Assembly: GCA_040905365.1 (NCBI GenBank)
Contig: JBBDRQ010000061.1
Span: 21,079 to 85,078, forward strand
Direction: 5' to 3'
DNA length: 64,000 nt
Origin: Actinomycetota bacterium
Lineage (GTDB): Bacteria > Actinomycetota > CADDZG01 > JAHWKV01
Made by a program: the position numbers and the translations under genes. Below, in pieces: positions 2,603 through 25,469 of the stretch. Each line of letters begins with the position of its first letter. The first letter of the stretch is position 1. Below the pieces are notes generated by a model that saw only the letters and a program-made list of their open reading frames with translations, had not been told where the DNA came from and ran no database searches.

Positions 2603-2695
2603 ACCGTGAGCAACTAGCCGGGGTTCGCGGCTAGAATGAGGTCGGGCGGGAGTGTAGCCTCTCGCGACAGGATTTTATCGTTAAGGAGTAGGTGG

Positions 2696-4632: not shown

Positions 4633-4659
4633 ACTCCCCAGGCAGACCGATCTACAACT

Positions 4660-5487: not shown

Positions 5488-5584
5488 ATTGAGCGCGCAC
5501 CCGAGCAGTGGATCCGAACCCGGTCCACCGTTGCGTCGACCGTTCAAGATCCAGTGGTGTCGTTCATGCCGGTAGCATAGGGGG

Positions 5585-5986: not shown

Positions 5987-6171
5987 AGTCCGGACCCGCG
6001 GCAGCTAGTACCCTGGCCACCAACCTCCGGGGCGTTTGGCGGCGTGAGCCACTCCCTGGCTGCGTTCTCCCTCGCACCGGTAGGGCACGGCTATAGGCGC
6101 TCGCTGCGTCCTTGCCAGGAAGCGCCTCACGCGCCCCAAACCTCGCAAAGGTTAGTGGCCAAGGTACTAGG

Positions 6172-8270: not shown

Positions 8271-8861
8271 ATGAGAAGCAAGTTGAAGAAGTCGGTGAAG
8301 CGGCGAGAAGACCTGGAGGACGCGCGACTGCTGGAAGAGATCGCTAACGGCGATCAGGCATGCCTGTCCATCCTCTACGACCGCTACGCCGGCTCGGCAT
8401 TCGGTCTTGCGTGGAAGATATGCAATAGCCGTGCGATAGCGGAGGACGTGGTGCAGGAGGCATTCATGGCAGTTTGGCAGCGGCCCGGAAGCTTCGATTC
8501 CGGCCGAGGGTCGGCCGGATCTTTCCTGCTGGGCATCGTTCACCACAAGGCAGTCGACGCCGTCCGGAAGGAGGAGTCCGTCCGTAGGCGTGAGGCGAAC
8601 TTTGCGGCAGATCTATCGGATTCCTCAGGCGACGAAATCCTCGATGCGGCTTGGCTGACGATTCGGCGGCAAACCGTCGTCAGGGCCCTTCGACAGCTCT
8701 CGGATGTACAGCGGGAGGCGCTGGAGCTCGCCTATCTCCACGGACTTACTTACAGCGAGGTAGCTGCGCGTCTACGTATACCGCTGGGCACGGCCAAGAC
8801 CAGGATGAGAGACGGGTTGATAAAGCTACGGGATATCCTTGACGAGAGCGCGGTGACCTGA
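8271..8861 (+). CDS. ECF sigma factor (SigK-like, sigma-70 regions 2 and 4)
   Basis: Region 2 (AEDVVQEAFMAVWQR) and a region 4 helix-turn-helix (LTYSEVAARLRIPLGTAKTRMRDG). Confidence 0.85.
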   Translation: MRSKLKKSVKRREDLEDARLLEEIANGDQACLSILYDRYAGSAFGLAWKICNSRAIAEDVVQEAFMAVWQRPGSFDSGRGSAGSFLLGIVHHKAVDAVRKEESVRRREANFAADLSDSSGDEILDAAWLTIRRQTVVRALRQLSDVQREALELAYLHGLTYSEVAARLRIPLGTAKTRMRDGLIKLRDILDESAVT

Positions 8862-9625
8862 TGACTATGACTCACGACGAGCTGCGAGAGCTCGTGCCCA
8901 TCATGGCCTTGGGGGCTCTTCCGGTCGAGGAAGAGCAACAGGTGGGCGCGCATGTCAAGTTTTGCGCAGAGTGCTCCCGCCTGCTCGACGAGTATCAATC
9001 TATCGCGGACGTCATGGCTATGGCGGTTCGCCCGCTCGCGCCTCCCGCGGACCTGAAGGACCGAATCATGGCCCAGGCACGCAAGACCGCGCCGGTCGAT
9101 ATGCAGCCTGCGCCCTCTGTGCTGCAACCGACCCGCCGTCGATCTTCGTTTGTCCGGTGGGCGGGAGTGACTGCCGCCGCCGCCGTAACTTTGATGGTTA
9201 TCGGGCTCGGCGCCCAGCAACTTGTCGAGCAGAATCAAAAGGTGCAGCAGCAGGAGGCGCTCTTGGCCGCTCAGCGTGAGGCACTGGACTTGCTGAGCTC
9301 CGGCGAGACCTCCGTGCTGACGATGAACCCTACCGAGGAAGCGGGCACCGTAACGGGACAAGTTTTCGTCTCCCGCGAAAGCGGCCGAGCGGCGGTTCTG
9401 ATGAACGGCCTTAACGAACCCGACGGCGACTCTATTTACACCTTGTGGCTGATCGAGAACGGCAACGAGGAGCCTGTCGTGGACTTTGGGCCCGACCAGT
9501 CCGGACTGGCCGTGCTGAGCGTGGACCAGGTGGATTCGGACGTCACTTTGGCGGTGACTCTGGAACCGCAGCGGGGCAACACCAGCCCGCAAGGACCGAT
9601 TCTAGCGGTAGCTTACCGAGCGTAG
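8861..9625 (+). CDS. Anti-sigma factor (RskA-like: N-terminal HxxxCxxC zinc motif, one TM helix, extracytoplasmic C-terminal domain)
   Basis: Its start overlaps the sigma stop (TGATG). Has HVKFCAECS and a TM helix AGVTAAAAVTLMVIGL. Confidence 0.75.
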   Translation: MTMTHDELRELVPIMALGALPVEEEQQVGAHVKFCAECSRLLDEYQSIADVMAMAVRPLAPPADLKDRIMAQARKTAPVDMQPAPSVLQPTRRRSSFVRWAGVTAAAAVTLMVIGLGAQQLVEQNQKVQQQEALLAAQREALDLLSSGETSVLTMNPTEEAGTVTGQVFVSRESGRAAVLMNGLNEPDGDSIYTLWLIENGNEEPVVDFGPDQSGLAVLSVDQVDSDVTLAVTLEPQRGNTSPQGPILAVAYRA

Positions 9626-9674: not shown

Positions 9675-10814
9675 TCAGTCTTCCAAGCGGGTCAGCCAGC
9701 GGGCGGGTTGTGCCAGTTCCACAGTGTCCGGTAGATGCTCCGGCTTCGCCCACAACGTATCCAGGGCGCCGCTGGGGGCGACCTCGGCGATGAACCGCTG
9801 GCCGCGCCGCCGCGCTTCGTTGGGTAGGTCCAGTCCCAGCATTTTCTCCAGCATCTTCTCTGCGGAGCTTCTGGTGGCGCGCCTGCGGTTCATTCCTTCA
9901 CGGATTTTCTCGTAGTCCTGAACCATTCCCGCGCCGGCCTTGTTCATGATCCAGTCGCCGTACCCCTCGGCCACGCTCAAGAATGCGCCGATCCTGTCGA
10001 CGACCGCCTCCTGGCCCGCCGAGCGAAGCATGGGGAACAGCTCGTCAGGCTGCTGCATCAGGGTCGTGAGCTCCTGAGGGTCGGTTATGTTTTGCAGTCT
10101 GTGGAACAGTTCCGAGGTGTGGATCTCGGCAGCATCTATGTACTGGTGAACCAAGCCGTTTAAATACGGACCCGCCCATTGAACGGACTGGAAGTGCAGT
10201 TCCCGGGTTACCGCCCGCAACGCCAGCCACATGCGCAGCGGCTCGGCCGGGATATCGAGCTCCGACTGGACGTCCAGGGTGTTGGGGTAGTTGATGACAA
10301 CCCGTCCCGGTTTCTTAGGGGGCAGTCCGATGTCCCAGTCGCCGACGGCCTTATGGGAGAGGTAGCCCACGCAAAGCCCGATTTGCAAGCCCATGATGTA
10401 AGGTCCGAGCGCCCCCAACAAGGGTCCTGCGCCTCCGGCGGCACCTCCGACAGCCACTTGTTCGGTGAACCGTTTGGCCAAACGCTCGATCAAAGGTTTC
10501 AGGTGTTCCAGGTATTGAGTCGCCCATGGACCCCGCCCTTGGAGGCTCACCTGGTTAACTCCCTGCACCGGTCCCAGGCCGGTGTGGCCGAGTACGCTTA
10601 GCTCGGATATGCGAATGGCCTGTTGGAACTCCTCGGCGTCGGTGCGGGTGGCCTTGGGGTTGCGGATGCCGGACTTGGACACTGCCGTGGCCATCTGCTC
10701 GGCCGCTACCCAGTCCACCGGTCCGGACTGAGAGGCGATGACGTTTTGGATTTCCCGGAAAAGGGGAATCTGCAGCAGCCGGCGGGTCAACTCCGCGGAG
10801 TCGATGTTCTCCAT
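9675..10814 (-). CDS. Conserved actinobacterial hypothetical protein (possibly DUF2342 zincin-like family; HExxH not evident)
   Basis: 379-aa ORF with protein-like composition. The family assignment is from memory and weak; VTRELHF is at best a degenerate HExxH. Confidence 0.5.
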   Translation of the reverse strand: MENIDSAELTRRLLQIPLFREIQNVIASQSGPVDWVAAEQMATAVSKSGIRNPKATRTDAEEFQQAIRISELSVLGHTGLGPVQGVNQVSLQGRGPWATQYLEHLKPLIERLAKRFTEQVAVGGAAGGAGPLLGALGPYIMGLQIGLCVGYLSHKAVGDWDIGLPPKKPGRVVINYPNTLDVQSELDIPAEPLRMWLALRAVTRELHFQSVQWAGPYLNGLVHQYIDAAEIHTSELFHRLQNITDPQELTTLMQQPDELFPMLRSAGQEAVVDRIGAFLSVAEGYGDWIMNKAGAGMVQDYEKIREGMNRRRATRSSAEKMLEKMLGLDLPNEARRRGQRFIAEVAPSGALDTLWAKPEHLPDTVELAQPARWLTRLED

Positions 10815-11472: not shown

Positions 11473-12480
11473 TTGCGACGTGATCTTGCCATCGATCTGG
11501 GAACTGCTAACACCCTGATCTATGCGAGCGGCCGCGGGATAGTTCTAAACGAACCCACTGTCGTTGCCCTCAACCGAGAGAACGGACGTGTTCTTGCTTT
11601 GGGCAACGCGGCGTTCGAACTGATCGAGTCCACGCCTGGATATGTGGTGGCCGAGCGTCCGTTAAGGCGAGGCGCCATCAGCGACTTCGATATGACCCAG
11701 CGCTACATCCGCATGCTGATGGAGAAGGTCGGGGTTCGGCGCCGCATCGCCAGGACTCGGGTCCTGATTTGCATTCCGTCGGCTATAACCGGGGTAGAGC
11801 GACGGGCCGTACAGGATGCAGCCATCGGGGCCGGCGCCCGTTCTGCGTACTTGATCGAGGAGCCCGTGGTGGCGGCCATAGGAGCCGGGTTGCCGATTCA
11901 AGACCCGATCGGGAACCTGATCGTCGACGTAGGGGGCGGCACTAGTGAAGTTGGCGTCATATCGATGGGCGGCGTGGTCGTGGACAAGTCGATCCGGGTC
12001 GGCGGGTTCGATATCGACGACGCGATAACCAAGTACATCCGGGACCGCTATTCGATAGTGGTAGGGGAGCGTACCGCCGAGCAGATCAAGATAGCTATTG
12101 GATCCGCCTTTCCGCTCGCCGAGGAAACCACCGCCGAAATAAAGGGACGGGATTTGGGTACCGGGCTCCCCAAGACGATTCAAATATCCTCCGAGCAGGT
12201 TCGTGCGGCGATCGAAGAACCGGTCTCGCAAATCATCAAAGCTGTGGTGACCGCTCTGGCTCAAACGCCTCCGGAGCTGGGCCAGGACATCCTGACCCGG
12301 GGGATCGCTCTGACGGGCGGCGGAGGCATGCTGCGTGGGCTCGACATCCGAATCGCCGAAGAGTGCGATGTCCCCGTACACTTGACTGATCGTCCGCTGG
12401 AATGTGTAGTGCGTGGCGCTGGCAAGTGTCTCGAGACGTTCCATCTTGTGAAGGATTTGTTCGCTACCTCAAACCCCTGA
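11473..12480 (+). CDS. mreB: Rod shape-determining protein MreB (actin homologue)
   Basis: DLAIDLGTANTLIY ... phosphate-1/2 and adenosine motifs. TTG start. No mreCD follow. Confidence 0.9.
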   Translation: MRRDLAIDLGTANTLIYASGRGIVLNEPTVVALNRENGRVLALGNAAFELIESTPGYVVAERPLRRGAISDFDMTQRYIRMLMEKVGVRRRIARTRVLICIPSAITGVERRAVQDAAIGAGARSAYLIEEPVVAAIGAGLPIQDPIGNLIVDVGGGTSEVGVISMGGVVVDKSIRVGGFDIDDAITKYIRDRYSIVVGERTAEQIKIAIGSAFPLAEETTAEIKGRDLGTGLPKTIQISSEQVRAAIEEPVSQIIKAVVTALAQTPPELGQDILTRGIALTGGGGMLRGLDIRIAEECDVPVHLTDRPLECVVRGAGKCLETFHLVKDLFATSNP

Positions 12481-12517: not shown

Positions 12518-13702
12518 ATGAATGAATTCAACTGGGTCGACCTGGTTATCGGGGTCTTCCTGGTTTCATCCGGCATCCGCGGCTATGTGCAGGGGGCTTT
12601 CTCTCAAGTCACCTCGTATCTGGGGTTCGGCGTGGGATTGTTCCTGGGAGCCCACCTAGGCCCTTCGGTGTCGGCCTACGTCGACAACCCCATCGGGAAG
12701 ATGATCGCAGTCGTAGTGGTGTTGTTCGGCGCGGCGGGCGTGTTGGGCACGGTCGGACGGGTGATGGGCGCGAAGGCCACCTGGGGGTTCGTGAGGGTCA
12801 CGCCGGCAAGGATAACCAATTCCCTCGGCGGCGTCGGTGTCGCGGTGCTGGCAGGCTTGATCGGAGTCTGGCTGCTGGGCGGGATGATTGCTCAGGTGGG
12901 CTTGGGAACGGTTTCCCCGGCCTTCCAGCAGTCGCAGATACTGCGCTCGCTGACCCGGACGCTGCCTCCCGTCCCAGGTGTCTTTTCCCAAATCCAACGT
13001 ATCTTTCTTCCCTCGGGGTTCCCGCCCGTGTTCGCGGAGCTCGAGCCGTCAATCGCCCCGGACGTACCGCTCGCCGAAAGTGCGGAGTTGCAGGCGATTG
13101 TAGATTCCGTAGGCACCAGCGTCGTCAAGATCTCGTCTCCGGGCTGCGGTCGTATCACCTCGGGGTCCGGATTCGTTGCCGGGCAAAACCTGGTTATCAC
13201 CAATGCCCACGTAGTTGCCGGCGTGGCGGAACCGACTGTCGCGGATGGCAACGGTCCGCATAGGGCCGAAGTGGTGCTTTTCGATCCCGACCTGGACTTC
13301 GCCGTTCTGCGCACCAGCGGTCTGGCCGGCTCACCGTTGCCGCTGTTGAGGAGCGAGGTCGAGCGCGGGGTAACGGGGGGAGTGTTGGGCTATCCCGAAG
13401 GAGGGCCCTTCGATGCGAAGTCCGCCGCAGTGCGGGCGCCGTTCAAAGACGCCGTCGGGCGTGATATCTACAGCCGGGATCTGGTTTCCCGCGACATATA
13501 TCAGCTCGACGCCAGGGTGAGGTCCGGCAACTCGGGTGGACCGTTCGTTCAACCCAGCGGTGAGGTGGTCGGAGTGGTGTTCGCGTCCTCGTTGATTAAC
13601 GACAACATTGCCTATGCTCTGACCTCCGCGCAGGTGGCCCCTTTGCTTGACCAAGTCGGACCGTCCGCTCCTGCGGTCGGCACCGGCCCTTGCCCTTTCT
13701 GA
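12518..13702 (+). CDS. CvpA-domain membrane protein fused to trypsin-like serine protease (MarP-like)
   Basis: Four N-terminal TM helices, then a protease core TNAHVVAG ... FDPDLDFAVLRT ... GNSGGPF (H/D/S triad). Confidence 0.8.
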   Translation: MNEFNWVDLVIGVFLVSSGIRGYVQGAFSQVTSYLGFGVGLFLGAHLGPSVSAYVDNPIGKMIAVVVVLFGAAGVLGTVGRVMGAKATWGFVRVTPARITNSLGGVGVAVLAGLIGVWLLGGMIAQVGLGTVSPAFQQSQILRSLTRTLPPVPGVFSQIQRIFLPSGFPPVFAELEPSIAPDVPLAESAELQAIVDSVGTSVVKISSPGCGRITSGSGFVAGQNLVITNAHVVAGVAEPTVADGNGPHRAEVVLFDPDLDFAVLRTSGLAGSPLPLLRSEVERGVTGGVLGYPEGGPFDAKSAAVRAPFKDAVGRDIYSRDLVSRDIYQLDARVRSGNSGGPFVQPSGEVVGVVFASSLINDNIAYALTSAQVAPLLDQVGPSAPAVGTGPCPF

Positions 13703-13703
13703 G

Positions 13704-14741
13704 ATGGCCGGATTGACGAGCGAGTCCCGCCTGCGTTGGCGTTCGATTTCGGCCGGACGCTGGACCGCGCTCGTAACGCTGTTGCTGGTGGCGCCCCTCC
13801 TCGCGACGACGCTGCGATTTCCGCTGCTGGTAATGGAACCGGGGCCCGCTCCCGATATCGCCGATCGCAGTGAGATTTTGACCCCGACCTTCGAGTCGAG
13901 CGGATCCTTCCACCTGACCACGGTGCAGATCCGGCGCCCGGGCGGTTCCACTCTGTTCGAGGCGATGCAGGCGATGTTCGCTTCCGATAAGTTTCTGGTT
14001 TCGCGCAGTGCTGTTTATCCACCGGGCGGATCGGACGAACAGGCGAACCAGGTGCAGAGTGCGCAGATGGTCCAAAGCGAGGTATCGGCGGCAGCAGTTG
14101 CGTTCGATGCTTTGGGAATTGAGTACGAGCAGGCGGGTGCGCTGGTAATCGATGTGCTGCCCGGGTCGCCGGCATCGGAGGTGTTGGAGCCGGGCGACGT
14201 GATTACGGAGGTGGACGGTCAGCCGGTGACCGGTATCGACGAACTCATCGAGGCGATCGCCCAGCGTTCGGCCGGCGAAACCTTGGCGGTCACTCTCACC
14301 CGGGACGGCGCGGTGACCAATGAGCAAGTGCGGACGGTTCAATCGCAGGAGGAGCCGGCACGTACCGTAATGGGGGTGCAGATTAGTCAGCACCACCGGG
14401 CCCCTATCGACATCAATTTCGACGCAGCCGATATCGGGGGGCCCTCGGCCGGTTTGATGTTCGCTCTTTCCATCTACGACCGGTTGGAGGAGGGTGACCT
14501 GACCGGCGGCAAAAAGATCGCAGGCACCGGGACCCTCGACGCCACCGATGGCAGCCGAACGGCAGTTGGCGGAGTCGGCGCGGTGGAGTTGAAGGTAAGG
14601 GGCGCTATGCAGCTGGGAGCGGACGTCTTTGTGGTGCCGCAGGACTCGGTGGAAAAGGCCCGCTCCTTGGCGGGTTCGTCGATGCAGGTGATCGGGGTGT
14701 CGACCTTCGAGGAGGCCATTGCCGCACTCGAAGCGCTGTAG
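13704..14741 (+). CDS. PDZ domain + Lon-like (S16) C-terminal proteolytic domain protein (YlbL / Rv3194c-like)
   Basis: The ATG sits 1 nt after the upstream stop. Has an N-terminal TM helix, a PDZ domain (LPGSPASEVLEPGDVITEVDGQPV), then Lon_C with GPSAGL. Confidence 0.8.
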   Translation: MAGLTSESRLRWRSISAGRWTALVTLLLVAPLLATTLRFPLLVMEPGPAPDIADRSEILTPTFESSGSFHLTTVQIRRPGGSTLFEAMQAMFASDKFLVSRSAVYPPGGSDEQANQVQSAQMVQSEVSAAAVAFDALGIEYEQAGALVIDVLPGSPASEVLEPGDVITEVDGQPVTGIDELIEAIAQRSAGETLAVTLTRDGAVTNEQVRTVQSQEEPARTVMGVQISQHHRAPIDINFDAADIGGPSAGLMFALSIYDRLEEGDLTGGKKIAGTGTLDATDGSRTAVGGVGAVELKVRGAMQLGADVFVVPQDSVEKARSLAGSSMQVIGVSTFEEAIAALEAL

Positions 14742-14840: not shown

Positions 14841-17582
14841 ATGGACACACTGTCAGCACCCTTCCATTTCGCCGCAACCTTCCTGGTCACCGTGGCTGCT
14901 TTGGGGGGGCTGTGGGTAACCATATACCGGCCCAGATTTGTGCCGGTCGGTCCAACGCGCCGTCTTCTGTTCGGGTTGGGCTGGCTGCTGCTGGCGCTGG
15001 GCGAGTTGCTTCACGGCTCTCAGATCGTAGCGCCCGAGCACGACCCGGTAGCAACCACCCTACGCGTGCTGGGCTACACCGCGGTGGTCGCCGGCCTGCA
15101 GTCACTGATAACGGGCAAGCAGCGGGAACCCGAAGCGATCGTCAGCGGACCCGGCCGGCTGCCCGGTTCCAGCGGCCATATCGTGACGCGGGCGCCCGTC
15201 GTGCCCCAGGTGAGACGGTTGATCGTCGCTCTGGGCTTGCTCGCGCTCACCGAAACCGCCTTTCTTACGATTCCGAACCTGAATCCGCAAGAATCTGGAG
15301 CGGCGTGGTTCGGTGTTCACGCTCTGCGCCTGGCCGGGGGGCTCGCGATATTGGCGTGGCTCGGACAGGTAGTGCGTTCTTCTATTCAGGCGCGGGTGGT
15401 AGCGGTCTTCATCGGTTTGATGCTGGTCATCGTTATCGCGATATCGGGGTCTTTGACCCAAGTATTTATCGCGAACCTTACCGACGAGTCGCTCAGCCGC
15501 GCGCGCCGGGAGAGCGAGGTGCAGGCTCGGCGGGTGCAGGATCAGGTCCAGCTTTCCGAGTCGCAGGCGCGCCAGATTGCCAGGCTGACCAGCTTCCGAG
15601 AGGCGCTGGCGGAACGATCGGTCAGCCTGGGAGCGGTCATTTCCGGACTCCAGGAGCCCGGCGGGGCTTTCGACAGCTCCGATTTCATGGCTCTGTTGGA
15701 TCCTTCGGGTGCGCTGCTGGCGATCTCCGCCGCCGGACAGGGCGGGTCGGCGAATCTGGAGGTGGAGGATGCGTTGGCTCTGGTAGGGACGTCGGTGGTG
15801 CAGGACGCCCTTGACCGGCAGCTGGAGGGAGGCGGTTTCGACCGGCTGGGGACGGGCCGGATAGCCGCCATCGCCGCGGTGCCGGTCCTTCACCCAGATG
15901 GCGTAGAGGTTGCCGGTGTGGTGGTCATGGGAAGTCTCATCGATGAGACGTACCTGGCAGAGCAGCGTGAGGCGCGCGGCGGCCAAGCCTTCTTGATAAC
16001 GCGAACTGAGGTGCTGGCAGGCACGACCGATCAAAGCGAAGGCGTGTTGCCGGACGACCCCAGAGCGTTGGAAACGTTGTTTGGGAGGGGGGCCCGAATA
16101 GCCGTCAACAACACCGTCGGCGGCCAGGACGTTTTTAGTGCCTACGTTCCATTGCAGCGGGACGGTGAGGTGATCGCGTCCCTGGTATTCAGTGCTCCGT
16201 CCGGAGTGCTCGGACTTGCTCAGAGCAACGTGGCAACCCCCTTGTTTTTCATTGCGCTGTGGGCAACCGCCATGGGGGGCGGACTGTCGCTCCTGTTCGG
16301 ATCTCGACTGACTCAACCCATCAGAGACCTGACCACTGCCGCCGACCGGGTTAGGGAGGGGGACCTGAGCGCCCGGGTGTCATTGGGCAGTGCCGACGAG
16401 GTCGGCGTTCTCGGAGATACCTTCGACGAGATGACCGAGGCGCTGCAGTCGTTGACCCAGGACCTCAGGCAGACTGCCGAGGAGCAGTTGGAGCTGCGGC
16501 GCAGACTGGAGACGATATTGCAGTCGATGACCGACGGGGTGGTGGCCGTCAACAACAACGGCACCGTCGAAGCCTTCAACCGGGAAGCGGAGCGGATTCT
16601 CGAGGTGCCGCAATCGAGCGCAGTCGGCAGCAACGTCAAAGATGTCATCAGAATCTTCGATGCCGCGGGGGCGCCGGTGGTTCCGGCCATCTTCGATTTG
16701 GCCAGCGGGTCGGTGAGCGGAATTGTAGTTACTCAAGACCGGACATCGCGGCCGGTCGTGGTCACCTCAGCTCCGGTCCAGGACGACAACAATGAGGCCC
16801 TGGGCGGGGTGGCGGTGCTGAGGGACCTTACCCGGGAAGTCGAGATCGAGAAGATGAAGACCGAGTTCCTGGCCAACATCTCGCATGAGCTGCGCACGCC
16901 GATCACTCCCATCAAGGGCTATTCGGACCTGCTGAGGCGAAAAGAGGTTCCGCGCGAGCAAACAGTTCATTTTGCGGAGGAAATCTCGGCGTCCGCGCAG
17001 AGGTTGGAACGTATCGTGGAGATGCTCGTAGACTTCTCGGCGATGGAGGCCGGGCGGCTGTCTCCCCAGAAGGTGTCGGTTGACTTCGGTCAGGTTGTCG
17101 ACGAGATCGTGCAGAAATGGTCGCATTCAGCTCCCAAGCACTCCTTCGACCGGCACGGTTTTGAGGAGCTGCCCAAGGTGTACGTGGACCGCAGGTTGGT
17201 TCCGCTGGCGATAAACGAGTTGGTGGACAACGCAGTCAAGTTCAGTCCCGACGGAGGTAAGGTGCTTCTCTCCGCTCAACACGTGAACCTGGGGCGGGGC
17301 AGGGGCGAGGTTCGCATCTCCGTGACGGATGAAGGCATAGGAATAGGGCAGGAACAGCTCTCGCGCATTGGCGGGAACTTTATACAGGCCGACGCGTCGG
17401 AGACCCGCGCCTATGGCGGCCTGGGGTTGGGCCTGGCTTATGTCCGCCGCATCGCCGAGAGTCACGGCGGACATCTTGAGGTGGACAGCAGGCCGGATAG
17501 AGGGTCTTGTTTTACTTTGGTTCTTCCGGCCAAGGCGCCTCCGGCACCGAAGGTCCGGCAGGTTTTCGGGGGCAGCTCGTGA
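14841..17582 (+). CDS. Sensor histidine kinase: about 10-TM N-terminal domain, HAMP, PAS, HisKA, HATPase_c; no adjacent response regulator
   Basis: H-box LANISHELRTPITPIKGYSDLL, G2 box GGLGLGLAYVRRI, and a HAMP domain (RDLTTAADRVREGDLSARV). Confidence 0.85.
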   Translation: MDTLSAPFHFAATFLVTVAALGGLWVTIYRPRFVPVGPTRRLLFGLGWLLLALGELLHGSQIVAPEHDPVATTLRVLGYTAVVAGLQSLITGKQREPEAIVSGPGRLPGSSGHIVTRAPVVPQVRRLIVALGLLALTETAFLTIPNLNPQESGAAWFGVHALRLAGGLAILAWLGQVVRSSIQARVVAVFIGLMLVIVIAISGSLTQVFIANLTDESLSRARRESEVQARRVQDQVQLSESQARQIARLTSFREALAERSVSLGAVISGLQEPGGAFDSSDFMALLDPSGALLAISAAGQGGSANLEVEDALALVGTSVVQDALDRQLEGGGFDRLGTGRIAAIAAVPVLHPDGVEVAGVVVMGSLIDETYLAEQREARGGQAFLITRTEVLAGTTDQSEGVLPDDPRALETLFGRGARIAVNNTVGGQDVFSAYVPLQRDGEVIASLVFSAPSGVLGLAQSNVATPLFFIALWATAMGGGLSLLFGSRLTQPIRDLTTAADRVREGDLSARVSLGSADEVGVLGDTFDEMTEALQSLTQDLRQTAEEQLELRRRLETILQSMTDGVVAVNNNGTVEAFNREAERILEVPQSSAVGSNVKDVIRIFDAAGAPVVPAIFDLASGSVSGIVVTQDRTSRPVVVTSAPVQDDNNEALGGVAVLRDLTREVEIEKMKTEFLANISHELRTPITPIKGYSDLLRRKEVPREQTVHFAEEISASAQRLERIVEMLVDFSAMEAGRLSPQKVSVDFGQVVDEIVQKWSHSAPKHSFDRHGFEELPKVYVDRRLVPLAINELVDNAVKFSPDGGKVLLSAQHVNLGRGRGEVRISVTDEGIGIGQEQLSRIGGNFIQADASETRAYGGLGLGLAYVRRIAESHGGHLEVDSRPDRGSCFTLVLPAKAPPAPKVRQVFGGSS

Positions 17583-18721
17583 GTATGCTCAGGATTGTCG
17601 GGGTACTGCTTGGAATCACGCTGCTTACCGGCGCCTGCTCCACCTATCAGACCCGGGAGTCGGTGGGCGAGGTTTCGTCGGTTCGGGGTGCGGTTGCGTT
17701 GGTCCGGGACGGCGAGAATCACCGGGTGGTTGGTACAGCGGAGGTCCGAGCCGGCGATGTGTTGTCGGTGGCCGACGATTCGGTCGGACGTCTTGTCCTA
17801 CGATCCGGCAGCGAGATTGAGCTGCACACCTCACGGCTGAAGGTGTCGGACGAGGACGCCGTCGAGCTGGAGGAGGGAACCGTGCTGGTGGCATCGACGG
17901 TCGCGACGGAGGTGCGGGCGGCGAGGGTGATCGCTACGGCGGGACCCGGCGAAGTCCGTTTTGATCTTGCTGAGACACTGCGGGTGGGCGCCTACGACAT
18001 TGACGGGTTGCGGCTGGCCTCCACCGGCGACGATGTGGAGGTGCCGCGCTACTGGCAGGCCGTTTACGCTGCCGACGGCACGGTGATGGGCGCCGGTCCG
18101 CTGCAGTTTTCGGGAAGCGATGCCATCGACCGCCGCTTGTTGGCACCGGCTCTACAGATCGACTCGCAGTTGAGCAACCTCCTGCGGGGGTTGGAGCCCC
18201 AGCTGGCCGTAGCGGGTGAGTCGTTTGTAGCCGACCGAGCGATGGATCAAGGCATCGATCCGGCAACGGTAGCTGCTTTCGCGGACTCTCCTAAGGCCGA
18301 CCTGTTGGTTGCCCTGGTTTTTTCCCGTCAAGAAACCGGTTCGCTCCCCGTAGGCCCCAGCGAGAGGTTTGGTCTGTCGCTTTATTTGCGCGGCTTGGGG
18401 GCCAGTTGGGGACTACTGGCGCAGCAATTCTCCTTGAGTGGTGACGCTCTGCTGGCTGGACTGGAGGAGGAAATAGCTGCGGTCTTGTTTCCCCCCGAAC
18501 AGGAGGTATCCAGCGGCGGGGAGCTGGTGCCGAGGCGGGTGGCGCCTCCGCCTCCCCCTTCCCCTGCGCCTTCTCCCGGGCCGCAGGAGCCGGAGTCGCC
18601 GCAGGAGCCGGAGTCGCCGGAGTCCCCCGACCCGTTGCTGGACCCGCTGCGCCCGTTGCTGCCTGAGGAGCTGGAACGCATCGTCGACGAGCTGTTCGGC
18701 TTGGTGGACAATTTGCTGTAG
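17579..18721 (+). CDS. FecR-domain lipoprotein with Pro-rich PQEPES-repeat C-terminus
   Basis: The GTG start overlaps the kinase stop (GTGA). Has a signal peptide with LTGAC lipobox and a FecR-like block (GAVALVRDGENHRVVGTAEVRAGDVLSVADDSVGRLVLRSGSEIEL). Confidence 0.6.
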   Translation: MSMLRIVGVLLGITLLTGACSTYQTRESVGEVSSVRGAVALVRDGENHRVVGTAEVRAGDVLSVADDSVGRLVLRSGSEIELHTSRLKVSDEDAVELEEGTVLVASTVATEVRAARVIATAGPGEVRFDLAETLRVGAYDIDGLRLASTGDDVEVPRYWQAVYAADGTVMGAGPLQFSGSDAIDRRLLAPALQIDSQLSNLLRGLEPQLAVAGESFVADRAMDQGIDPATVAAFADSPKADLLVALVFSRQETGSLPVGPSERFGLSLYLRGLGASWGLLAQQFSLSGDALLAGLEEEIAAVLFPPEQEVSSGGELVPRRVAPPPPPSPAPSPGPQEPESPQEPESPESPDPLLDPLRPLLPEELERIVDELFGLVDNLL

Positions 18722-18813
18722 ATCCCGCGATCGAGGGATCAAGGATCCGTCGGTTTTCCGGTTCCGGCCAGTAGTCTTGGAGCGTTGGCCGCGCTAGGTG
18801 CAAGGAAGTGAGA

Positions 18814-20628
18814 ATGGATCCGGAGGAAGTAGAACAGCGAGAATTTCTAGTTACGCTGCGGGGCTATTCCCGAGACGAGGTCGACGCCTTCAAGTCGGAG
18901 GTAGCCGGGTACCTGCGCAGCCTAACAGCCGAGCTGACCGCCTCCGCTGAGGAACTTAAGAACGTAAAAGTCCAGCTGGAGCAAGCGCGAGCGCAGCCCC
19001 GGTCCGAACCTGGAGCGCGGGAGGCCGAAGAGGCCGAAGCGCAAACGACACCACACCGGGAGTTGGCGTTCAAGCAGGTTGCTCAGGAGACGGAGCGGAT
19101 ACTGATGGCGGCCGAACAGGTCGCGGAGCAGATGCACGCCCGGGCCCGCCAGGAAGCGGCGGAGGTCCTGACCGATGCCCGGCGCCAGGCACAGCACGGT
19201 TTCGATCAAGTGGAGGAGTCCAAGCGGCGCGCAGAGCGCGACCTCGACAGCATCCGCGAGTCACGGGGGTTGATCGCATCCCAGATGGAGGACATACGGC
19301 GCCGGCTCGACGAGACGATAAATCGTCTGCGTATTCCCGTGGAGTCTCCTGTCACCCCGGTCCGGCCGCGCGGTTTTCGGGAGGACCGCCAGCGCGCCTT
19401 GCACGAGGCGGATCAAGCTCAGCCGGTGGCCGGTCCTCAGCCGGGAGCGGAGCCCGATGCCGCCCAAAAGGAGCCTCGATCCGACCGGGATCGCCGGCTG
19501 AGGCAAATTGCCGAGCGCCAGGCGCGGGAAGTAGCCGAGGGTCCGGATAAAGAGCGTGCCTCCCAGCAGGCCAAGCCTCGCTCATCGGGCGAGCCCGCTA
19601 AGCCAAAGCAGCCTGAGCGCTCGGAGGACGCCGCCGATTCGCAGAACACGCCCGCCGCTGCGCCTCCGACCTCCCGGGCACCTGAGATCCCCGACGCCTT
19701 GAAACCCGAGCAACCTGCCGAGCCCGAGCAGCAACCTGCCTCAGGGAGGGACGAGCCGAAGGCGCCGCAGGTTGAGTCGTCGAAGGGTGCTTTGGACGAA
19801 CTGTTGGAGGAGTTTCGCCGAAGCCGCGCCAAGGGTAGCGATGCCAAAGCTGCCGGGTCCCAACAGGAGACTGCGACCGAGACGGCAACAACCGAGACGG
19901 CAACTGATTTAGCCGGTACAGCGGACCGGCCCGGGACCGGTGAGGACGCACTGGATCGGCTCGAGCAACGCACCGAGCTCCTGAGCGACCTACCCAACCA
20001 AGCTGCACGCCGGTTGAAGCGGTTGTTGCAGGAGGAGCACAACGACATCCTGGATCGGCTGCGTACAACCAAGAAAGCCAAAGCCGATGCTGAGCAGATC
20101 GTCGCCCCGATAGACGAGCAACTCGCGCGCTTTTTAGATGGTCTCGGCAACGTTCTCGGCGAGGCGTTCCAGCGGGGGCGCCGGCCGGCCGGCGGCAACG
20201 AAAACGGCGATGCTGCCGACGCCGTTGAGCGGCTGATCACCAGGCAAGTGGTGAAACCCTTGAGGTCGGAGGTGGTGGGGGCCATTCAGGCCGGTTTGGA
20301 TGCCGACGACGCAGCCTCGTCCGTAGCCGAGCGGGCCAGCGATGTATTTCGGGTGTGGAAAGGTGTGCGGACCGAGTTGCTCGGCGAGGGCATGGCTTAC
20401 GCCGCGTATCACCAGGGGTTGCTGGACCAGTGGTCGGGCCAATCCGGGGCACGTAAAGTGTGGGTGATCTCCGAGGAGGACGAGTGCCCGGGTGACGTGT
20501 GCGCTACCAACGCCGCAGCCGGCCCGACCGACCTTAAGGCCGCATTTCCCAGCGGTCATACGCTGCCACCGGCTCACGGCGGCTGCCTTTGTACGTTAAA
20601 CAAGGCCGACTCGAGTAAAAACCATTAG
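18814..20628 (+). CDS. DivIVA-domain protein with long charged, disordered region and a Cys-containing C-terminal domain
   Basis: N-terminal DivIVA motif FLVTLRGYSRDEVDAFKSEV; about 400 aa of E/R/A/Q-rich low-complexity sequence; C-terminus VWVISEEDECPGDVCATNAAAGP ... PPAHGGCLCTL. The ATG at 18814 follows AAGGAAG. The ORF-track GTG is at 18808. Confidence 0.7.
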   Translation: MDPEEVEQREFLVTLRGYSRDEVDAFKSEVAGYLRSLTAELTASAEELKNVKVQLEQARAQPRSEPGAREAEEAEAQTTPHRELAFKQVAQETERILMAAEQVAEQMHARARQEAAEVLTDARRQAQHGFDQVEESKRRAERDLDSIRESRGLIASQMEDIRRRLDETINRLRIPVESPVTPVRPRGFREDRQRALHEADQAQPVAGPQPGAEPDAAQKEPRSDRDRRLRQIAERQAREVAEGPDKERASQQAKPRSSGEPAKPKQPERSEDAADSQNTPAAAPPTSRAPEIPDALKPEQPAEPEQQPASGRDEPKAPQVESSKGALDELLEEFRRSRAKGSDAKAAGSQQETATETATTETATDLAGTADRPGTGEDALDRLEQRTELLSDLPNQAARRLKRLLQEEHNDILDRLRTTKKAKADAEQIVAPIDEQLARFLDGLGNVLGEAFQRGRRPAGGNENGDAADAVERLITRQVVKPLRSEVVGAIQAGLDADDAASSVAERASDVFRVWKGVRTELLGEGMAYAAYHQGLLDQWSGQSGARKVWVISEEDECPGDVCATNAAAGPTDLKAAFPSGHTLPPAHGGCLCTLNKADSSKNH

Positions 20629-20640
20629 GCTGGGTCCTCC

Positions 20641-23526
20641 ATGGTGACGAAGCTTCCTTCGCCCGGATCCGGGCGACCGCTGCGGACGGTCCTGATCGGA
20701 CTGATTTTTGTCGTCATAATCTCGCTGTCGGCAATTGTCAGCCTGTACGTCGACCTGCTTTGGTTCCAGGAGGTCGGCTTCGATTCGGTGTTCTGGAAGA
20801 TCCTGTCCTCGCAAGCCTTCCTGGTGGCAGCGTTCGGTTTGGTCTTTTTTGTTTTTTGTCTCGTCAATCTGATCGTCGTCTCCCGATCCAGCCCCACTTA
20901 TCCGATGACCGACCCGGACGACCCGTTGGAGCGGCTGCGAGAAGCCTTGATTCCACTTCCCAAATGGATTCTTATCGGCGCCAGCGCGCTGCTGGCGTTT
21001 CTGTTTGCTTTGCGATTGGCTCCCGCTTGGGAGCTGTTTTTGCTGTCGAACAACCAGGTGCCCTTTGGGATCGAGGACCCGGTGTTCCAAAAGGACATCG
21101 GTTTTTACGTCTTTCGGCTGCCCATGCTGCAGTTGACCTATCAGTGGCTGTTCTCGGCAGTATTCGTGGTGATCCTGCTGGTGGCAGGTACCTATTACCT
21201 CACGGGAGGCATCCGGCCCCAGGCGGCGATCGATCGGGTGTCGGCCAACGTAAAGGTCCACTTGTCCGTGCTGATCGGCCTGCTGGCGCTGCTAAGGGCG
21301 TGGGGCTACCGGCTTGACCAGTTCGAGCTTTTGTACTCCGAGCGGGGGACGGTGTCGGGAGCGTCCTACACCGATGTAACCGCCGAGCTGCCGGCTCTGA
21401 ATTTGTTGCTTGTGGTTTCGATAATCGGCGCAATCTTGTTCCTCGTAAATATTCGCTTCAGGGGCTGGGCGCTGCCTGCCATCGGTTTGGGTCTGTGGGT
21501 CCTCACCTCGGTTCTGGCCGCCGGCGTCTACCCGGCGGTCATCGAGCGCTTTCGGGTAGAGCCGGCTCAGCTGCAAAGGGAGCGGCCTTACCTGGAACGC
21601 AATCTCGAGTCGACCCGGTCCGCCTATGGATTGGATGCCATGGAGGTTACCCAGTTTCCGATCGAGCCGGGCTTGAGCGCCGAAACGGTGGAGGGTAACG
21701 ACAACACCTTGGACAACGTCAGGCTCTGGGATCCCCAGACGTTGAAGACCGCGTACCGCCAGCTCCAGGAGATCCGGACCTACTACCAGTTTCAAGACGT
21801 GGACGTGGATCGCTACACGATCAACGGGCAGCGCCGGCAGTTGATGCTGGCGCTGCGCGAGCTCGACGTCAGCGGATTGGAGAGCCGGTCTTGGCTAAAC
21901 GATCACTTGGTTTACACGCACGGCTACGGTGCGGTTGCCAGCCCCACCAACGACACCGAGGGGGAGGGACGCCCACGGCTGCTGCTGCGGGACATACCTC
22001 CAGCCAGCGGTGTGGACCGGCTGGACATAGAGCGATCCGGCATCTACTTCGGCGAAGGCCCCGCTACTTACTCGGTGGTCAAGACGGAGCAATTGGAGCT
22101 TGACTACACCGCCGAGGGCGAGAACCGGACTACCGAATATGCGGGCGAGGCCGGCATCCCCATCTCCAACCTCTTCCGGCGGGCGGCGCTGGCTTGGAAT
22201 TTCCGGGACGTCAACCTGCTGATCTCCAGCCTTATCGACTCCGACTCCGAGATCCTGACCAACCGCAATATCCGCCAGCGCGTGCAGAAGGTGGCTCCGT
22301 TTCTGGAATTAGACGGCGATCCGTACCCGGTGATCGCCGACGGAAAGATCACATGGATGCTCGACGCCTACACGGTCTCGGGCATGTACCCGTATTCGCA
22401 GCACTTCGACTTCCAGGGCCTCTCGATGATCCGCGGGGGTGCATCGGAGGGTCAACCCAGCATCTTTGGCACGAACAACTACATACGCAACTCGGTGAAA
22501 GTGACCGTCGACGCGTACGACGGCACGATCAAGCTGCACGTATGGGACGAGGACGATCCGATTATCCGGGCCTGGCGCAGCGCCTTTCCCGATCTTTTCG
22601 TCGATCAGGACGCGATGCCCGCGGAGTTGAGGGAGCACATTCGCTATCCCGAGGATCTGTTCCGCATCCAGGCCAACGTGTATCAGCGCTACCACATGAC
22701 CAACATCACCGAGTTCTACCAGCGCGAGGACCAATGGGTCATTCCGGATCAACCGGAGGGTATAGCCGCCAGCGGCGGCGCCAGATCCAACAAGCTGGAC
22801 CCCTACTACGTGTTGATGCGGCTCCCCGACGCCGATGCCGACCAGTACGTGATGATCCTGCCGATGAACCCGCGTGGCCGCCCCAACATGGTGTCCTTGC
22901 TGGCCGCCAAATCCGATCCGGACGAGTTTGGCGAGCTGGTCGATTTGAGGTTCCCTGCAGGCCTGCAGGTGTTCGGTGTGGGCCAGGTTCATGCGCGAAT
23001 CAACGCCAACGAGGAGATCTCAGAAACTCGTACTCTGCTGGGCCAGGGCGGTTCCAGGGTAATCTTGGGCAACCTGTTGGTCCTGCCGATCGGTGATTCG
23101 CTGGTGTACTCGCAGCCGCTGTTCGTGCAAGCCGAATCCAACGCTATCCCGGAGCTCAAGTACGTGATCCTGGCCACCTCGGACCAGGTCCGTATGGCGC
23201 CGACGGTCGAGTTGGCGCTGGAGGCGCTGCTTAGGGACGGACCGACGGTCGTCGATACCCCCGACGAATTGGACGAGACTCCGGAGGGAGAAGGGGAGCC
23301 GGCCGATCCTCCGCCGCCCGAACCCGAACCCGAACCCGAGCCCGAGCCCGAGCCCGAGCCCGAACCGGAACCCGAACCGCTAACCGGGACGCAGCAGGAG
23401 CTCCTGCTGCAGGCGGCCGAGCACTTCGACGCCGCCGACGAGGCTGCTCGCAACGGCGACTGGGCCACTTACGGCGAGCAGCAGCGCCTGGGCCGGGAAG
23501 CGATTAGCGAGGCCCTGGGCGGCTAG
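20641..23526 (+). CDS. UPF0182-family large polytopic membrane protein with C-terminal (PE)n repeat
   Basis: 961 aa with 7 or more N-terminal TM helices and a large extracytoplasmic domain. It resembles mycobacterial Rv3193c-type proteins. Confidence 0.85.
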   Translation: MVTKLPSPGSGRPLRTVLIGLIFVVIISLSAIVSLYVDLLWFQEVGFDSVFWKILSSQAFLVAAFGLVFFVFCLVNLIVVSRSSPTYPMTDPDDPLERLREALIPLPKWILIGASALLAFLFALRLAPAWELFLLSNNQVPFGIEDPVFQKDIGFYVFRLPMLQLTYQWLFSAVFVVILLVAGTYYLTGGIRPQAAIDRVSANVKVHLSVLIGLLALLRAWGYRLDQFELLYSERGTVSGASYTDVTAELPALNLLLVVSIIGAILFLVNIRFRGWALPAIGLGLWVLTSVLAAGVYPAVIERFRVEPAQLQRERPYLERNLESTRSAYGLDAMEVTQFPIEPGLSAETVEGNDNTLDNVRLWDPQTLKTAYRQLQEIRTYYQFQDVDVDRYTINGQRRQLMLALRELDVSGLESRSWLNDHLVYTHGYGAVASPTNDTEGEGRPRLLLRDIPPASGVDRLDIERSGIYFGEGPATYSVVKTEQLELDYTAEGENRTTEYAGEAGIPISNLFRRAALAWNFRDVNLLISSLIDSDSEILTNRNIRQRVQKVAPFLELDGDPYPVIADGKITWMLDAYTVSGMYPYSQHFDFQGLSMIRGGASEGQPSIFGTNNYIRNSVKVTVDAYDGTIKLHVWDEDDPIIRAWRSAFPDLFVDQDAMPAELREHIRYPEDLFRIQANVYQRYHMTNITEFYQREDQWVIPDQPEGIAASGGARSNKLDPYYVLMRLPDADADQYVMILPMNPRGRPNMVSLLAAKSDPDEFGELVDLRFPAGLQVFGVGQVHARINANEEISETRTLLGQGGSRVILGNLLVLPIGDSLVYSQPLFVQAESNAIPELKYVILATSDQVRMAPTVELALEALLRDGPTVVDTPDELDETPEGEGEPADPPPPEPEPEPEPEPEPEPEPEPEPLTGTQQELLLQAAEHFDAADEAARNGDWATYGEQQRLGREAISEALGG
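23317..23379 (+). repeat. Tandem hexanucleotide repeat (CCCGAR)x10 encoding (Pro-Glu)n within the UPF0182 C-terminus
   Basis: The repeat is read directly from the sequence. It is in-frame within the UPF0182 gene. Confidence 0.8.
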
Positions 23527-23583: not shown

Positions 23584-23657
<74 letters not shown>

Positions 23658-23677
23658 ACTAGATTTCAGGCACAAAT

Positions 23678-23973: not shown

Positions 23974-24432
23974 CTACTTATGCACTACCTGGGTGTGGGC
24001 GGCCAGGTCTCCTAGGCGCTGCCTTTTTGAGGAGACCAGAACCGTGATGAAGGCCACCAGATAGAAGAACAGTCCGTCAACAATGCGCAGAACCGTCCTA
24101 ATGGTTGCGGGGCCCAGCCCCGGGACCTCATTCGAATCTTCCTTCACGACCTTGATGCCGGCGACCATCTTTCCGACTGTTTGGCCCAGATAGCCCTCCA
24201 TGAGAATGAAGTACGCGAGCGCCAGCAAGCCGTAGGCGAACGCCGGCAAGCCCGCAAGGTTGGCCTCCCACGTTCCCTGCACGGCCGCGAAGTCGCCGAA
24301 GGCGGATGCCATGGCGGCGAACAGCAGGCCCAAGATGAGGCCGTCGACGATGGTCGCTACCACCCTTTTGCCGGTGACGTGGAAATTCTCTTGTGCCGCG
24401 GTTGCCGAATAACCCACCGTATGGCTGGTCAT
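23974..24432 (-). CDS. RDD-family membrane protein
   Basis: 152 aa from an internal ATG (confirmed as CAT at 24430-24432 on the + strand), with three TM helices and an RDD-like fold. The ORF-track extension to 25077 is antisense to the TlpA-like fragment. Confidence 0.7.
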   Translation of the reverse strand: MTSHTVGYSATAAQENFHVTGKRVVATIVDGLILGLLFAAMASAFGDFAAVQGTWEANLAGLPAFAYGLLALAYFILMEGYLGQTVGKMVAGIKVVKEDSNEVPGLGPATIRTVLRIVDGLFFYLVAFITVLVSSKRQRLGDLAAHTQVVHK

Positions 24433-24604
24433 GTTGCGTTCCCCTTTCGCCGGGTTGCTCTGTGTGGGCAGCCTGACGTCTGCTCGGCGCGGGCGGTAGA
24501 TGCAAGTGGCCCGGCTTCTACGGGGCTTTAGGCCCTTAGCTCGATGTGCAGCAGGTGGCTCGGCAGGTCTGAGCACGGACTTCCCGGCCCTGGGCGTGCG
24601 CCGG

Positions 24605-24960
24605 GTGCCGGAGAAGACTCGAAAGACGGCGCCCGTGGCTCTTGCGGCCGCGGCCGCCTGCACGTCCGGGCAAAACGACTCCTCACCGTCGCCGAAGGCG
24701 GCAGCTACCGTGCCCGACGCCGCTACCGCGACGCCGGATCCGCCGGGCGGCACCGCCCCTTCGATGCAGACCAACTCAGCTCGACAGGCGGCCGAAGTGC
24801 CGCCGATTGTGGACTTCACCGCGTCCCGGTTGGGCGGCGGGGAGGTGGTCGGCGCCGAGCTGGCCGGAAACCACGTGGCTATGTGGTTTTGGGCTCCCTG
24901 GTGACCCACCTGCAATGCGGAAGCTTCCGATGTCGCACAGGTGGTGCGAGAGTATGAGTG
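24605..24960 (+). pseudogene. Truncated TlpA/ResA-like thioredoxin-fold lipoprotein fragment with TGA in place of the first Cys of the CxxC motif
   Basis: GTG 24605; signal peptide with AAAAAC lipobox; ... GEVVGAELAGNHVAMWFWAPW-TGA(24902-04)-PTCNAEASDVAQVVREYE matches FWASWCGPCRAEAP.L..L...Y. Homology ends about 20 codons later and the region then overlaps the cupredoxin gene on the opposite strand. Confidence 0.55.
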
Positions 24961-25016
24961 GTGCCTGTATCCGCACCGGCGGAACCGAGGTGGTGCTTTC
25001 TTTGGAACCACGGGCC

Positions 25017-25469
25017 TCAGTCGTTCACTACGAGTGTGCCCACCATTCCGGCTTGGGCATGTCCGGGAATTGTGCATTCAAACCGGTACCGTCCGGCGTC
25101 GGTTACCTCAAGCCCTCCCGTGGATCGCCGGCCTGCATTGGCTCTCAGCTGGAAATCTAGTTCGACGATGGTGAAATCGTGGATCAGCGCGCCTCGATTG
25201 CTCAGGCCGATATTGACCGGTTCCCCTGCGGTGATTTCGATCCTGGAGGGGTCGAAAACGAATTCACCGGCTTGGACCTCGATCTGCTCGCCGCCCCGGA
25301 TGCGGGGTGGAAGTGGGCCGCTATCGTCTACACGCCAGCCCATCATCGTCCCGTGCGGATGATAGGACCAGCCGGCGCCGCTTCCGGAGGAAACCGCCAT
25401 GCCGACCAACCCCACCACCAACGACGCGACTCCACCGATCAGCAAAGCGCGCGAAGGCATCCGTGTCAC
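25017..25469 (-). CDS. Secreted cupredoxin-like copper-binding protein
   Basis: N-terminal signal/TM segment; FECTIPGHAQAGMVGTLVV gives type-1 Cu ligands (Cys, His, Met). Confidence 0.8.
   Translation of the reverse strand: MTRMPSRALLIGGVASLVVGLVGMAVSSGSGAGWSYHPHGTMMGWRVDDSGPLPPRIRGGEQIEVQAGEFVFDPSRIEITAGEPVNIGLSNRGALIHDFTIVELDFQLRANAGRRSTGGLEVTDAGRYRFECTIPGHAQAGMVGTLVVND

Follow-up and report, generated by a model that had tools for sequence, protein, structure and literature searches.

A DivIVA–MuF-type fusion protein encoded beside UPF0182 in a conserved gene cluster of Acidimicrobiia-like Actinomycetota

A 64-kb stretch of an actinomycetotal genome (GenBank contig JBBDRQ010000061.1, positions 21,079 to 85,078; hereafter the window) carries five co-directional open reading frames (ORFs) on the forward strand between 13.6 and 23.5 kb. 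In order, they encode a PDZ-Lon membrane protease, a sensor histidine kinase, a lipoprotein, a protein that joins a DivIVA domain to a domain resembling the MuF head-morphogenesis proteins of phages (DivIVA-MuF), and a membrane protein of the UPF0182 family. Orthologues of all five ORFs were found elsewhere, and these are therefore real genes; the GC content is even along the region and its composition is not atypical. The two outer genes correspond to Rv3194c (PDZ-Lon) and Rv3193c (UPF0182) of mycobacteria, which we presume to be adjacent there from their consecutive locus tags. The three ORFs lying between them, which an earlier sequence-only reading of this DNA had described as an insert, were confirmed.

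The fourth gene is the central subject of this analysis. Its ATG start is preceded at 6-7 nt by AAGGAAG and agrees with the start of the orthologues (MDPEE...); full-length orthologues share 38-48% identity, and hydropathy analysis revealed no transmembrane (TM) segment. The N-terminal DivIVA domain recognised by the sequence-only reading (residues 5-61, with the motif REFLVTLRGYSRDEVDAF) matched PF05103 at E 1.3e-9, with 38.5 bits against a cut-off of 28, and Pfam detected it in 65 of the 66 full-length family members (best E 9.5e-18). Alignment by eye places L-R in the window protein where DivIVA of B. subtilis has F17-R18. The linker contains the motif LDELLEEFR (residues 329-337, nt 19792-19818), which follows the pattern [VL][DE]xL[FL]xx[IL]R. 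A loose regular expression for this pattern matched 53 of the 66 members, in at least 44 cases inside the linker and mostly 50-115 residues before the MuF-like domain; the motif may be a docking helix. An exact-sequence look-up of the window DivIVA-MuF protein returned no record.

The C-terminal region was compared with phage proteins by profile, predicted fold and motif. It matched phrog_2662 ('portal protein', profile positions 491-705 of 717) at E 2.4e-9 over ~200 residues and, weakly, phrog_1657 ('head morphogenesis', E 0.024). An AlphaFold2 model of the domain (predicted local distance difference test score, pLDDT, 90.4; predicted template modelling score, pTM, 0.87) shows a bundle of helices and, after it, a small Cys/His element of strand and helix. 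When this model was searched with Foldseek against the predicted structures of BFVD, 45 hits were obtained at E≤1e-3 (query TM-score, TMq, up to 0.73), and all of the named ones were phage minor capsid, head-morphogenesis or MuF proteins, or fusions of MuF with portals or toxins. Thirteen positions are invariant or nearly so (W552, C565, N568, G572, F580, G583, H584, P587, P588, H590, G592, C593, C595), and the C-terminal motif PPAHGGCLC is present as part of the domain. When 50,697 phage genomes were searched by tblastn, a single weak match (E 0.01) was obtained; it falls within the portal gene of Brevundimonas phage Strzyga. The family profile was aligned by hhalign with the C-terminus of this portal protein at a probability of 97.7% (E 1.5e-12), with a near-identical motif (W..C..C..N..G......FPSGH..P.AHP.CRC), and the Strzyga region itself matches Pfam Phage_Mu_F (PF04233) at E 8.9e-6. 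MuF proteins from viral contigs carry the same motifs in the same order (R-TE...G, W..C..C..N..G, FPSGH..PPAH..C.C).

Within the family, Phage_Mu_F matched 11 of the 66 members at E≤0.01 (best 5.7e-5), all under the gathering score; the matches in relatives, which range from E 5.7e-5 to 0.13, span the full profile length. An hhalign comparison of the family profile with SPP1 gp7 alone was not significant, and a profile search of the PDB with the MuF-like domain gave chance hits to uS19 only. From these comparisons, we assign the entire C-terminal region of ~220 aa to a divergent MuF-type domain, of the FPSGHxxPPAHxxCxC subtype that is also fused to phage portals. The resemblance to MuF pointed out by the sequence-only reading was thus upheld, but the unit is the ~220-aa region and not the last ~60 aa. 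Profile and structure searches, of the kind which that reading had proposed, recovered both halves of the protein, the DivIVA domain in Pfam and the MuF homology in PHROG, hhalign and the predicted fold, though PF04233 stayed under its threshold.

The context of the gene is cellular. Around it there is no head module with portal and terminase genes; the neighbours are PDZ-Lon, the kinase, the lipoprotein, UPF0182, MreB, proteases and a tRNA, and the same non-phage context was found in 83 loci. A word-indexed search identified just 22 homologues of the protein. An exhaustive profile search of 1.84 billion representatives yielded 5759 matches at E≤1e-3 and 974 at E≤1e-30, mostly of 400-800 aa with the domain at the C-terminus. 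When one genome per GTDB species was scanned, at least 501 species genomes were found to encode a DivIVA-MuF homologue. The best 80 of these belong to Acidimicrobiia (including the cultured Aciditerrimonas ferrireducens JCM 15389), Nitriliruptorales and unclassified metagenome-assembled genomes of Actinomycetota. In the nearest relative, identity reaches 81% for the MuF-like domain and 84% for UPF0182. In the source annotations the proteins appear as 'DivIVA domain-containing protein', 'cell division septum initiation protein DivIVA' or 'hypothetical'. Since the Pfam thresholds miss the cellular MuF domain, hundreds of proteins bear only the 'DivIVA domain-containing' label. A literature search for DivIVA and MuF together returned incidental co-mentions only. 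The architecture, which the sequence-only reading did not recognise, is widespread and already present in databases under the DivIVA label. One close relative (L003, ena:ERZ25039588:contig_50562) holds the same cluster with kinase, DivIVA-MuF and UPF0182 each split into several called genes, which looks like frameshift errors of long-read assembly; owing to such split calls, database 'homologues' of 200-300 aa seem to lack the DivIVA part.

In all 83 loci examined, UPF0182 is the next gene downstream of DivIVA-MuF and is encoded on the same strand. The gap between the two genes has a median of 44 bp and does not exceed 150 bp in 78 of 80 loci; in the window the UPF0182 start is 12 bp past the DivIVA-MuF stop. 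Apparent read-through fusions of the two genes in L013 and L023 were rejected, as stop codons are present. The upstream context was counted in the 59 loci with enough upstream sequence. PDZ-Lon precedes on the same strand in 54 of them and stands directly before DivIVA-MuF in 42 (median gap ~100 bp). A kinase is located between PDZ-Lon and DivIVA-MuF in 14 loci, 10 from the clade of the window and 4 from distant Acidimicrobiales, in three of which it ends 35-124 bp before DivIVA-MuF. The lipoprotein accompanies the kinase in all 10 window-clade loci.

On the basis of these counts, the conserved core is PDZ-Lon, DivIVA-MuF and UPF0182, in this order, and the kinase module is an accessory, variable insertion. 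The view of a three-gene insert peculiar to this genome was not borne out: DivIVA-MuF is the ancestral neighbour of UPF0182, the kinase and lipoprotein alone are inserted, and these two are syntenic in every close relative (10 loci). The arrangement in the window's clade is a vertically inherited, conserved cluster and not a one-off insert. Of the two outcomes that the sequence-only reading had named as jointly damaging to it, absence of a MuF hit and synteny in the relatives, the second was found and the first was not. A scan for consensus terminators between the genes gave one weak and unconvincing candidate (a 5-pair stem at 18736-18748), and a promoter scan found none on the coding strand. 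The positions of the genes and domains are given in Table 1.

Table 1. Features of the cluster in the window, and receiver and GGDEF-like genes in related loci (coordinates of the related loci are their own)
Feature	Position	Strand	Basis or remark
PDZ + S16 Lon-like membrane protease (Rv3194c/SepM-like)	13647..14741	+	first gene of conserved core; start codon uncertain
Sensor histidine kinase, 913 aa	14841..17582	+	Pfam, hydropathy
Lipoprotein	17579 (GTG) or 17585 (ATG)..18721	+	signal peptide, lipobox
DivIVA-MuF fusion protein, 604 aa (ATG 18814) or 606 aa (GTG 18808)	18814..20628	+	Pfam DivIVA; MuF-like C-terminus
DivIVA N-terminal domain and subsequent coiled coil	18820..19341	+	PF05103, matched in two stretches
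Low-complexity linker, probably disordered	19345..19959	+	translation
MuF-like (phage head-morphogenesis) domain	19960..20625	+	PHROG, AlphaFold2/Foldseek, hhalign
UPF0182 family membrane protein	20641..23526	+	PF03699, E 8.4e-284
L007 GGDEF-like / receiver	4688-5587 / 5593-6096		
L010 GGDEF-like / receiver	4415-5362 / 5332-5832		
L011 GGDEF-like	5287-6153		
L012 GGDEF-like / receiver	4768-5691 / 5658-6140		
L032 receiver	2560-3003		
L051 receiver	390-851		

Both outer genes of the core are readily classified. The PDZ-Lon protein has a single N-terminal TM segment by hydropathy and matches Pfam PDZ_2 (E 1.1e-12), NCBIfam SepM_fam_S16 (E 4.4e-37) and, C-terminally, the LonB and LonC models. The UPF0182 protein matches PF03699 over its full length (profile positions 3-770 of 770) and consists of an N-terminus with seven hydrophobic segments (7 TM), a large extracytoplasmic domain and an (EP)n tail; to our knowledge, this family is universally conserved in Actinobacteria. 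Acidic, proline-rich low-complexity ends are found both here (23290-23390, residues ~885-915) and in the lipoprotein (18560-18640). A tRNA-Met (CAT) gene follows on the same strand (23585-23659), 59 bp past the UPF0182 stop. Upstream of the cluster, the window shows a run of envelope proteases with MreB: Zincin_2 (9675-10814, minus strand), MreB (11473-12480, plus strand), a CvpA/Colicin_V membrane domain fused to a trypsin-like protease (12518-13702, plus strand), which we take to be the architecture of mycobacterial MarP, and PDZ-Lon. The neighbourhood is similar in L002 (Zincin_2, trypsin-PDZ protease, MreB) and partly so in L003 (Zincin_2, MreB). Further downstream, on the minus strand, lie genes for an RDD-family membrane protein (23974-25077) and a 983-aa P-type ATPase (25877-28828). 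The ATPase, which carries cupredoxin-like and HMA domains at its N-terminus and a YHS domain at its C-terminus, probably exports copper.

The kinase carries HAMP (residues 486-536), PAS (555-662), HisKA (672-738, E 1.1e-17) and HATPase_c (787-898, E 1.6e-25) domains according to Pfam. Because hydropathy analysis gives about six N-terminal helices (residues 8-206) and one at 462-486, before HAMP, the protein has about seven TM segments and not the roughly ten that the sequence-only reading had assigned to its sensor. These segments surround an extracytoplasmic Cache/CHASE4-like loop of ~260 aa (residues ~206-462), within which residues 228-440 give weak Pfam signals for CHASE4 (E 1.2e-5) and dCache (E 0.005). 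Orthologues from 10 syntenic loci are 36-58% identical in the sensor and 50-74% in the core. By NCBIfam score the kinase resembles WalK, PhoR and MtrB, but it falls far under every equivalog cut-off (WalK 272 vs 725 bits, MtrB 157 vs 450 bits) and is not an equivalog of them. No receiver domain was detected by phmmer in any ORF of the 64 kb with NarL-type, CheY and PhoB queries; the same PhoB query readily detects receivers in related loci. The kinase is therefore locally orphan, as had been noticed from the sequence.

The lipoprotein gene starts either with a GTG (17579) that overlaps the kinase stop codon (TGA, 17580-17582) as GTGA or with an ATG at 17585. This start/stop overlap couples the two genes translationally and agrees with their treatment as a unit in the sequence-only reading. 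The lipobox (LLTGA-C, Cys codon 17636-17638) is kept in all 12 aligned orthologues. The tail SPGPQEPESPQEPESPESPDP, previously written as (PQEPES)n, is present but contains just two PQEPES copies. The tails of related lipoproteins are rich in Pro, Ser and Ala, differ in sequence and lead into a conserved terminal helix (…LPxELExIVDELxGLV). The family is narrow (9 hits), and an AlphaFold2 model built with 9 database homologues (pLDDT 81) comprises an all-beta domain (residues 26-172), a helical domain (180-301), a disordered Pro/Glu-rich stretch and a C-terminal helix (361-377).

The predicted fold of the beta domain matches the periplasmic beta domain of FecR/PupR. The proposed FecR-like domain holds at this level only: Pfam FecR (PF04773) matched none of 12 sequences, the window lipoprotein and 11 orthologues, at E≤1, and a profile search of PDB sequences returned nothing meaningful. 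The three traits of FecR regulators, an N-terminal anti-sigma domain, a TM helix and an extracytoplasmic function (ECF) sigma partner, are all missing, and no sigma gene is present in the cluster. For these reasons, and because a lipid takes the place of the TM helix as its anchor, the lipoprotein is not a FecR-type anti-sigma regulator. A protein with an RskA-type anti-sigma-K factor C-terminal domain is encoded elsewhere in the window (8861-9625, plus strand) and is unrelated to it.

In a sister sub-clade (L007, L010, L011, L012 and L014), a TM protein of ~300 aa with a partial or degenerate GGDEF domain is encoded between the lipoprotein and DivIVA-MuF. Stand-alone receivers (Response_reg, E 1e-25 to 1e-31) were identified in L007, L010 and L012, where the receiver stop overlaps or abuts the DivIVA-MuF start, and the distant loci L032 and L051 likewise carry a receiver at this place. 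Both the GGDEF-like and the receiver gene are absent at the locus in the window and in L006, L008, L009, L013 and L016. Since receivers are coupled in this way in sister and distant lineages, the cognate partner of the kinase is likely a single-domain receiver that would act by protein-protein contacts and would have been lost or moved from the window locus.

We put at about one in two the probability that the region is, as a whole, a vertically inherited operon for envelope and membrane-protein homeostasis in Acidimicrobiia-like Actinomycetota. Because its gene is paired so tightly and universally with that of UPF0182, DivIVA-MuF is the leading candidate for a cytoplasmic partner of this protein, and we tentatively suggest that the two are in physical contact. 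A DivIVA domain is a coiled-coil scaffold for partner proteins that binds the membrane at the cell poles and where its curvature is negative. DivIVA-MuF would sit on the cytoplasmic face of the membrane, with its MuF-like domain, perhaps together with the linker helix, docking onto an oligomeric UPF0182 complex or onto partners of the FtsH/YccA type, and this docking would localise or regulate membrane-protein quality control. The lipoprotein could modulate the extracytoplasmic sensor of the kinase, as LpqB does for MtrB and WalH/WalI for WalK. Kinase and lipoprotein would then feed envelope signals into the system, with the output passing through a stand-alone receiver. UPF0182 is itself predicted to form a tetrameric dome, and its phenotypes in three actinobacteria correlate with those of FtsH and YccA; in the Mycobacteriales studied, its proposed partners are YccA, MSMEG4237 and FtsH (bioRxiv 10.1101/2025.11.14.688347). 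As to the origin of DivIVA-MuF, we offer as a speculative scenario that a phage MuF domain of the portal-associated head-morphogenesis kind was acquired by an ancestor of the Acidimicrobiia-like Actinomycetota and became joined to DivIVA, which would have yielded a dedicated cytoplasmic docking subunit for UPF0182, in some lineages controlled by phosphorylation via the kinase, lipoprotein and receiver.

Several observations weigh against this model. PF04233 remains under its gathering score (29.6 bits) in every relative, the C-terminal 222 aa of the window protein have no Pfam match, and solved structures resemble the MuF-like domain as generic helical bundles only. The biochemical role of MuF domains is poorly defined. 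The putative contact between DivIVA-MuF and UPF0182 is read from gene order, and no fusion of the two proteins was seen in the loci examined. UPF0182 works without a DivIVA-MuF partner in mycobacteria and corynebacteria, and DivIVA-MuF is therefore not essential to its core function. Finally, as the window lacks a receiver, the link from the kinase to DivIVA-MuF is borrowed from relatives.

DivIVA-MuF could instead be a second polar or septal scaffold of the DivIVA/Wag31 type that serves growth and division. Its C-terminus would then recruit a different client, for instance nucleic acid or a cell-wall enzyme, and its adjacency to UPF0182 would reflect shared regulation only. Its strong DivIVA domain and the nearby MreB and envelope proteases would suit such a role, and Rv3193c is a genetic interactor, by transposon sequencing (Tn-seq), of the divisome protein Rv0954 (PMC8093794). 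In phage heads, moreover, MuF proteins of the SPP1 gp7 type are associated with the portal and the packaging machinery, and they often carry fused modules (PMC5512222). We nevertheless regard this explanation as unlikely: the adjacency is 100%, with gaps of tens of bp, in lineages at ~30% identity, which exceeds typical co-regulation, and the core encodes no alternative client.

The homeostasis model also connects the kinase and lipoprotein with the core, a connection that would disappear if they were an independent sensing unit which landed by chance between PDZ-Lon and DivIVA-MuF and signals elsewhere. The absence of the kinase module from 42 of the 59 loci, the missing receiver and the narrowness of the lipoprotein family all agree with such an accident. 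Kinases recur at the same position in distant lineages, however, with 38-44% core identity, and the stand-alone receiver of the relatives is translationally coupled to DivIVA-MuF; we consider a chance landing improbable. Still far less credible is a fortuitous resemblance to MuF, in which a helical bundle and a small Cys/His knuckle would have arisen without common ancestry. The subthreshold PF04233 matches and the failure of hhalign with SPP1 gp7 alone could be taken in this sense, but they are outweighed by the extended PHROG match, the 97.7% alignment to a phage portal-MuF protein with a near-identical motif, the MuF identity of the leading BFVD hits and the motif order common to viral-contig MuF proteins. 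The idea that the locus is a remnant of a prophage, or a polymorphic toxin or defence element of the MuF type, suggested by a domain that is otherwise a phage and prophage hallmark and often fused to effectors (PMC5512222), was rejected on genomic context as hardly conceivable, given the housekeeping neighbours without any portal, terminase or capsid gene, the C-terminal position of MuF with no toxin domain after it, the unremarkable composition and the synteny kept in 83 loci of different species.

Known relatives exist for every part of the cluster (DivIVA, MuF, the FecR fold, a WalK-like kinase and UPF0182), which as a whole is unexceptional, inherited and frequent within its clade. What is not described in the literature and annotations searched is the DivIVA–MuF-type fusion, the large cellular family that it forms and its invariable pairing with UPF0182. 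UPF0182 has been linked, recently and indirectly, to FtsH/YccA membrane-protein quality control (bioRxiv 10.1101/2025.11.14.688347), and the strict linkage to a cytoplasmic neighbour, seen across a large sister radiation, provides a concrete hypothesis of a UPF0182 interaction. If true, this would be the first role of a MuF domain in cells rather than in viruses and the first identified cytoplasmic partner of UPF0182. MuF, held to be a domain of virions and effector delivery, has a stable cellular descendant. The variants with and without kinase, lipoprotein and receiver form a natural series for studying regulation. Most carriers are uncultured, and the functional link proposed here comes from the order of the genes.

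Unlike the FecR/PupR sigma regulators (PF04773; PDB 6ovm, 4m0h), the lipoprotein has neither a Pfam match nor a cytoplasmic anti-sigma domain; it carries a lipid anchor in place of the TM helix and a helical domain in place of the STN domain, and is paired with a histidine kinase rather than with an ECF sigma factor and TonB transducer.

With MuF polymorphic toxins, DivIVA-MuF shares the presence of a MuF-type domain in a multidomain protein. In those toxins, as reportedly described by Jamet et al. in 2017, the MuF domain is N-terminal and a toxin domain comes after it, with an immunity gene next and the whole set located in prophages; here the MuF-like domain ends the protein, and UPF0182 is the gene that follows. 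The fold and the ordered motifs are common to DivIVA-MuF and to phage MuF/SPP1 gp7 proteins and portal-MuF fusions (PF04233, phrog_2662, phrog_1657), the C-terminus of the Strzyga portal being the best single match to the window domain. In contrast to these, the DivIVA-MuF gene is cellular and outside a head-gene module, its domain is fused to DivIVA and not to a portal or effector, HPxCRC is replaced by GGC in the window's clade, and the PF04233 gathering score is not reached.

DivIVA, Wag31 and GpsB (PF05103) have in common with DivIVA-MuF the N-terminal signature F..S.RGYD..EV..FL, the coiled coil that follows it and their solubility. They are 160-270 aa long, as against ~600 aa for DivIVA-MuF, which adds a long disordered linker and the MuF-like domain, and they are encoded in the dcw/ylm cluster, whereas DivIVA-MuF belongs to the PDZ-Lon/UPF0182 operon. 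The downstream gene of the window is a full-length member of the UPF0182 family (Rv3193c / MSMEG1959 / cgp_0896), for which no DivIVA-MuF partner is described in Mycobacteriales.

MtrB-LpqB and WalK-WalH/WalI are pairs of a kinase and an extracytoplasmic accessory protein encoded downstream of it. By analogy, the window pair would belong beside them, with a HAMP-PAS-HisKA-HATPase kinase, a co-translated exported accessory protein and an envelope context in common. It differs in that the kinase is an equivalog of neither and the fold of the accessory protein is another one, and relatives of the window use a stand-alone receiver as response regulator.

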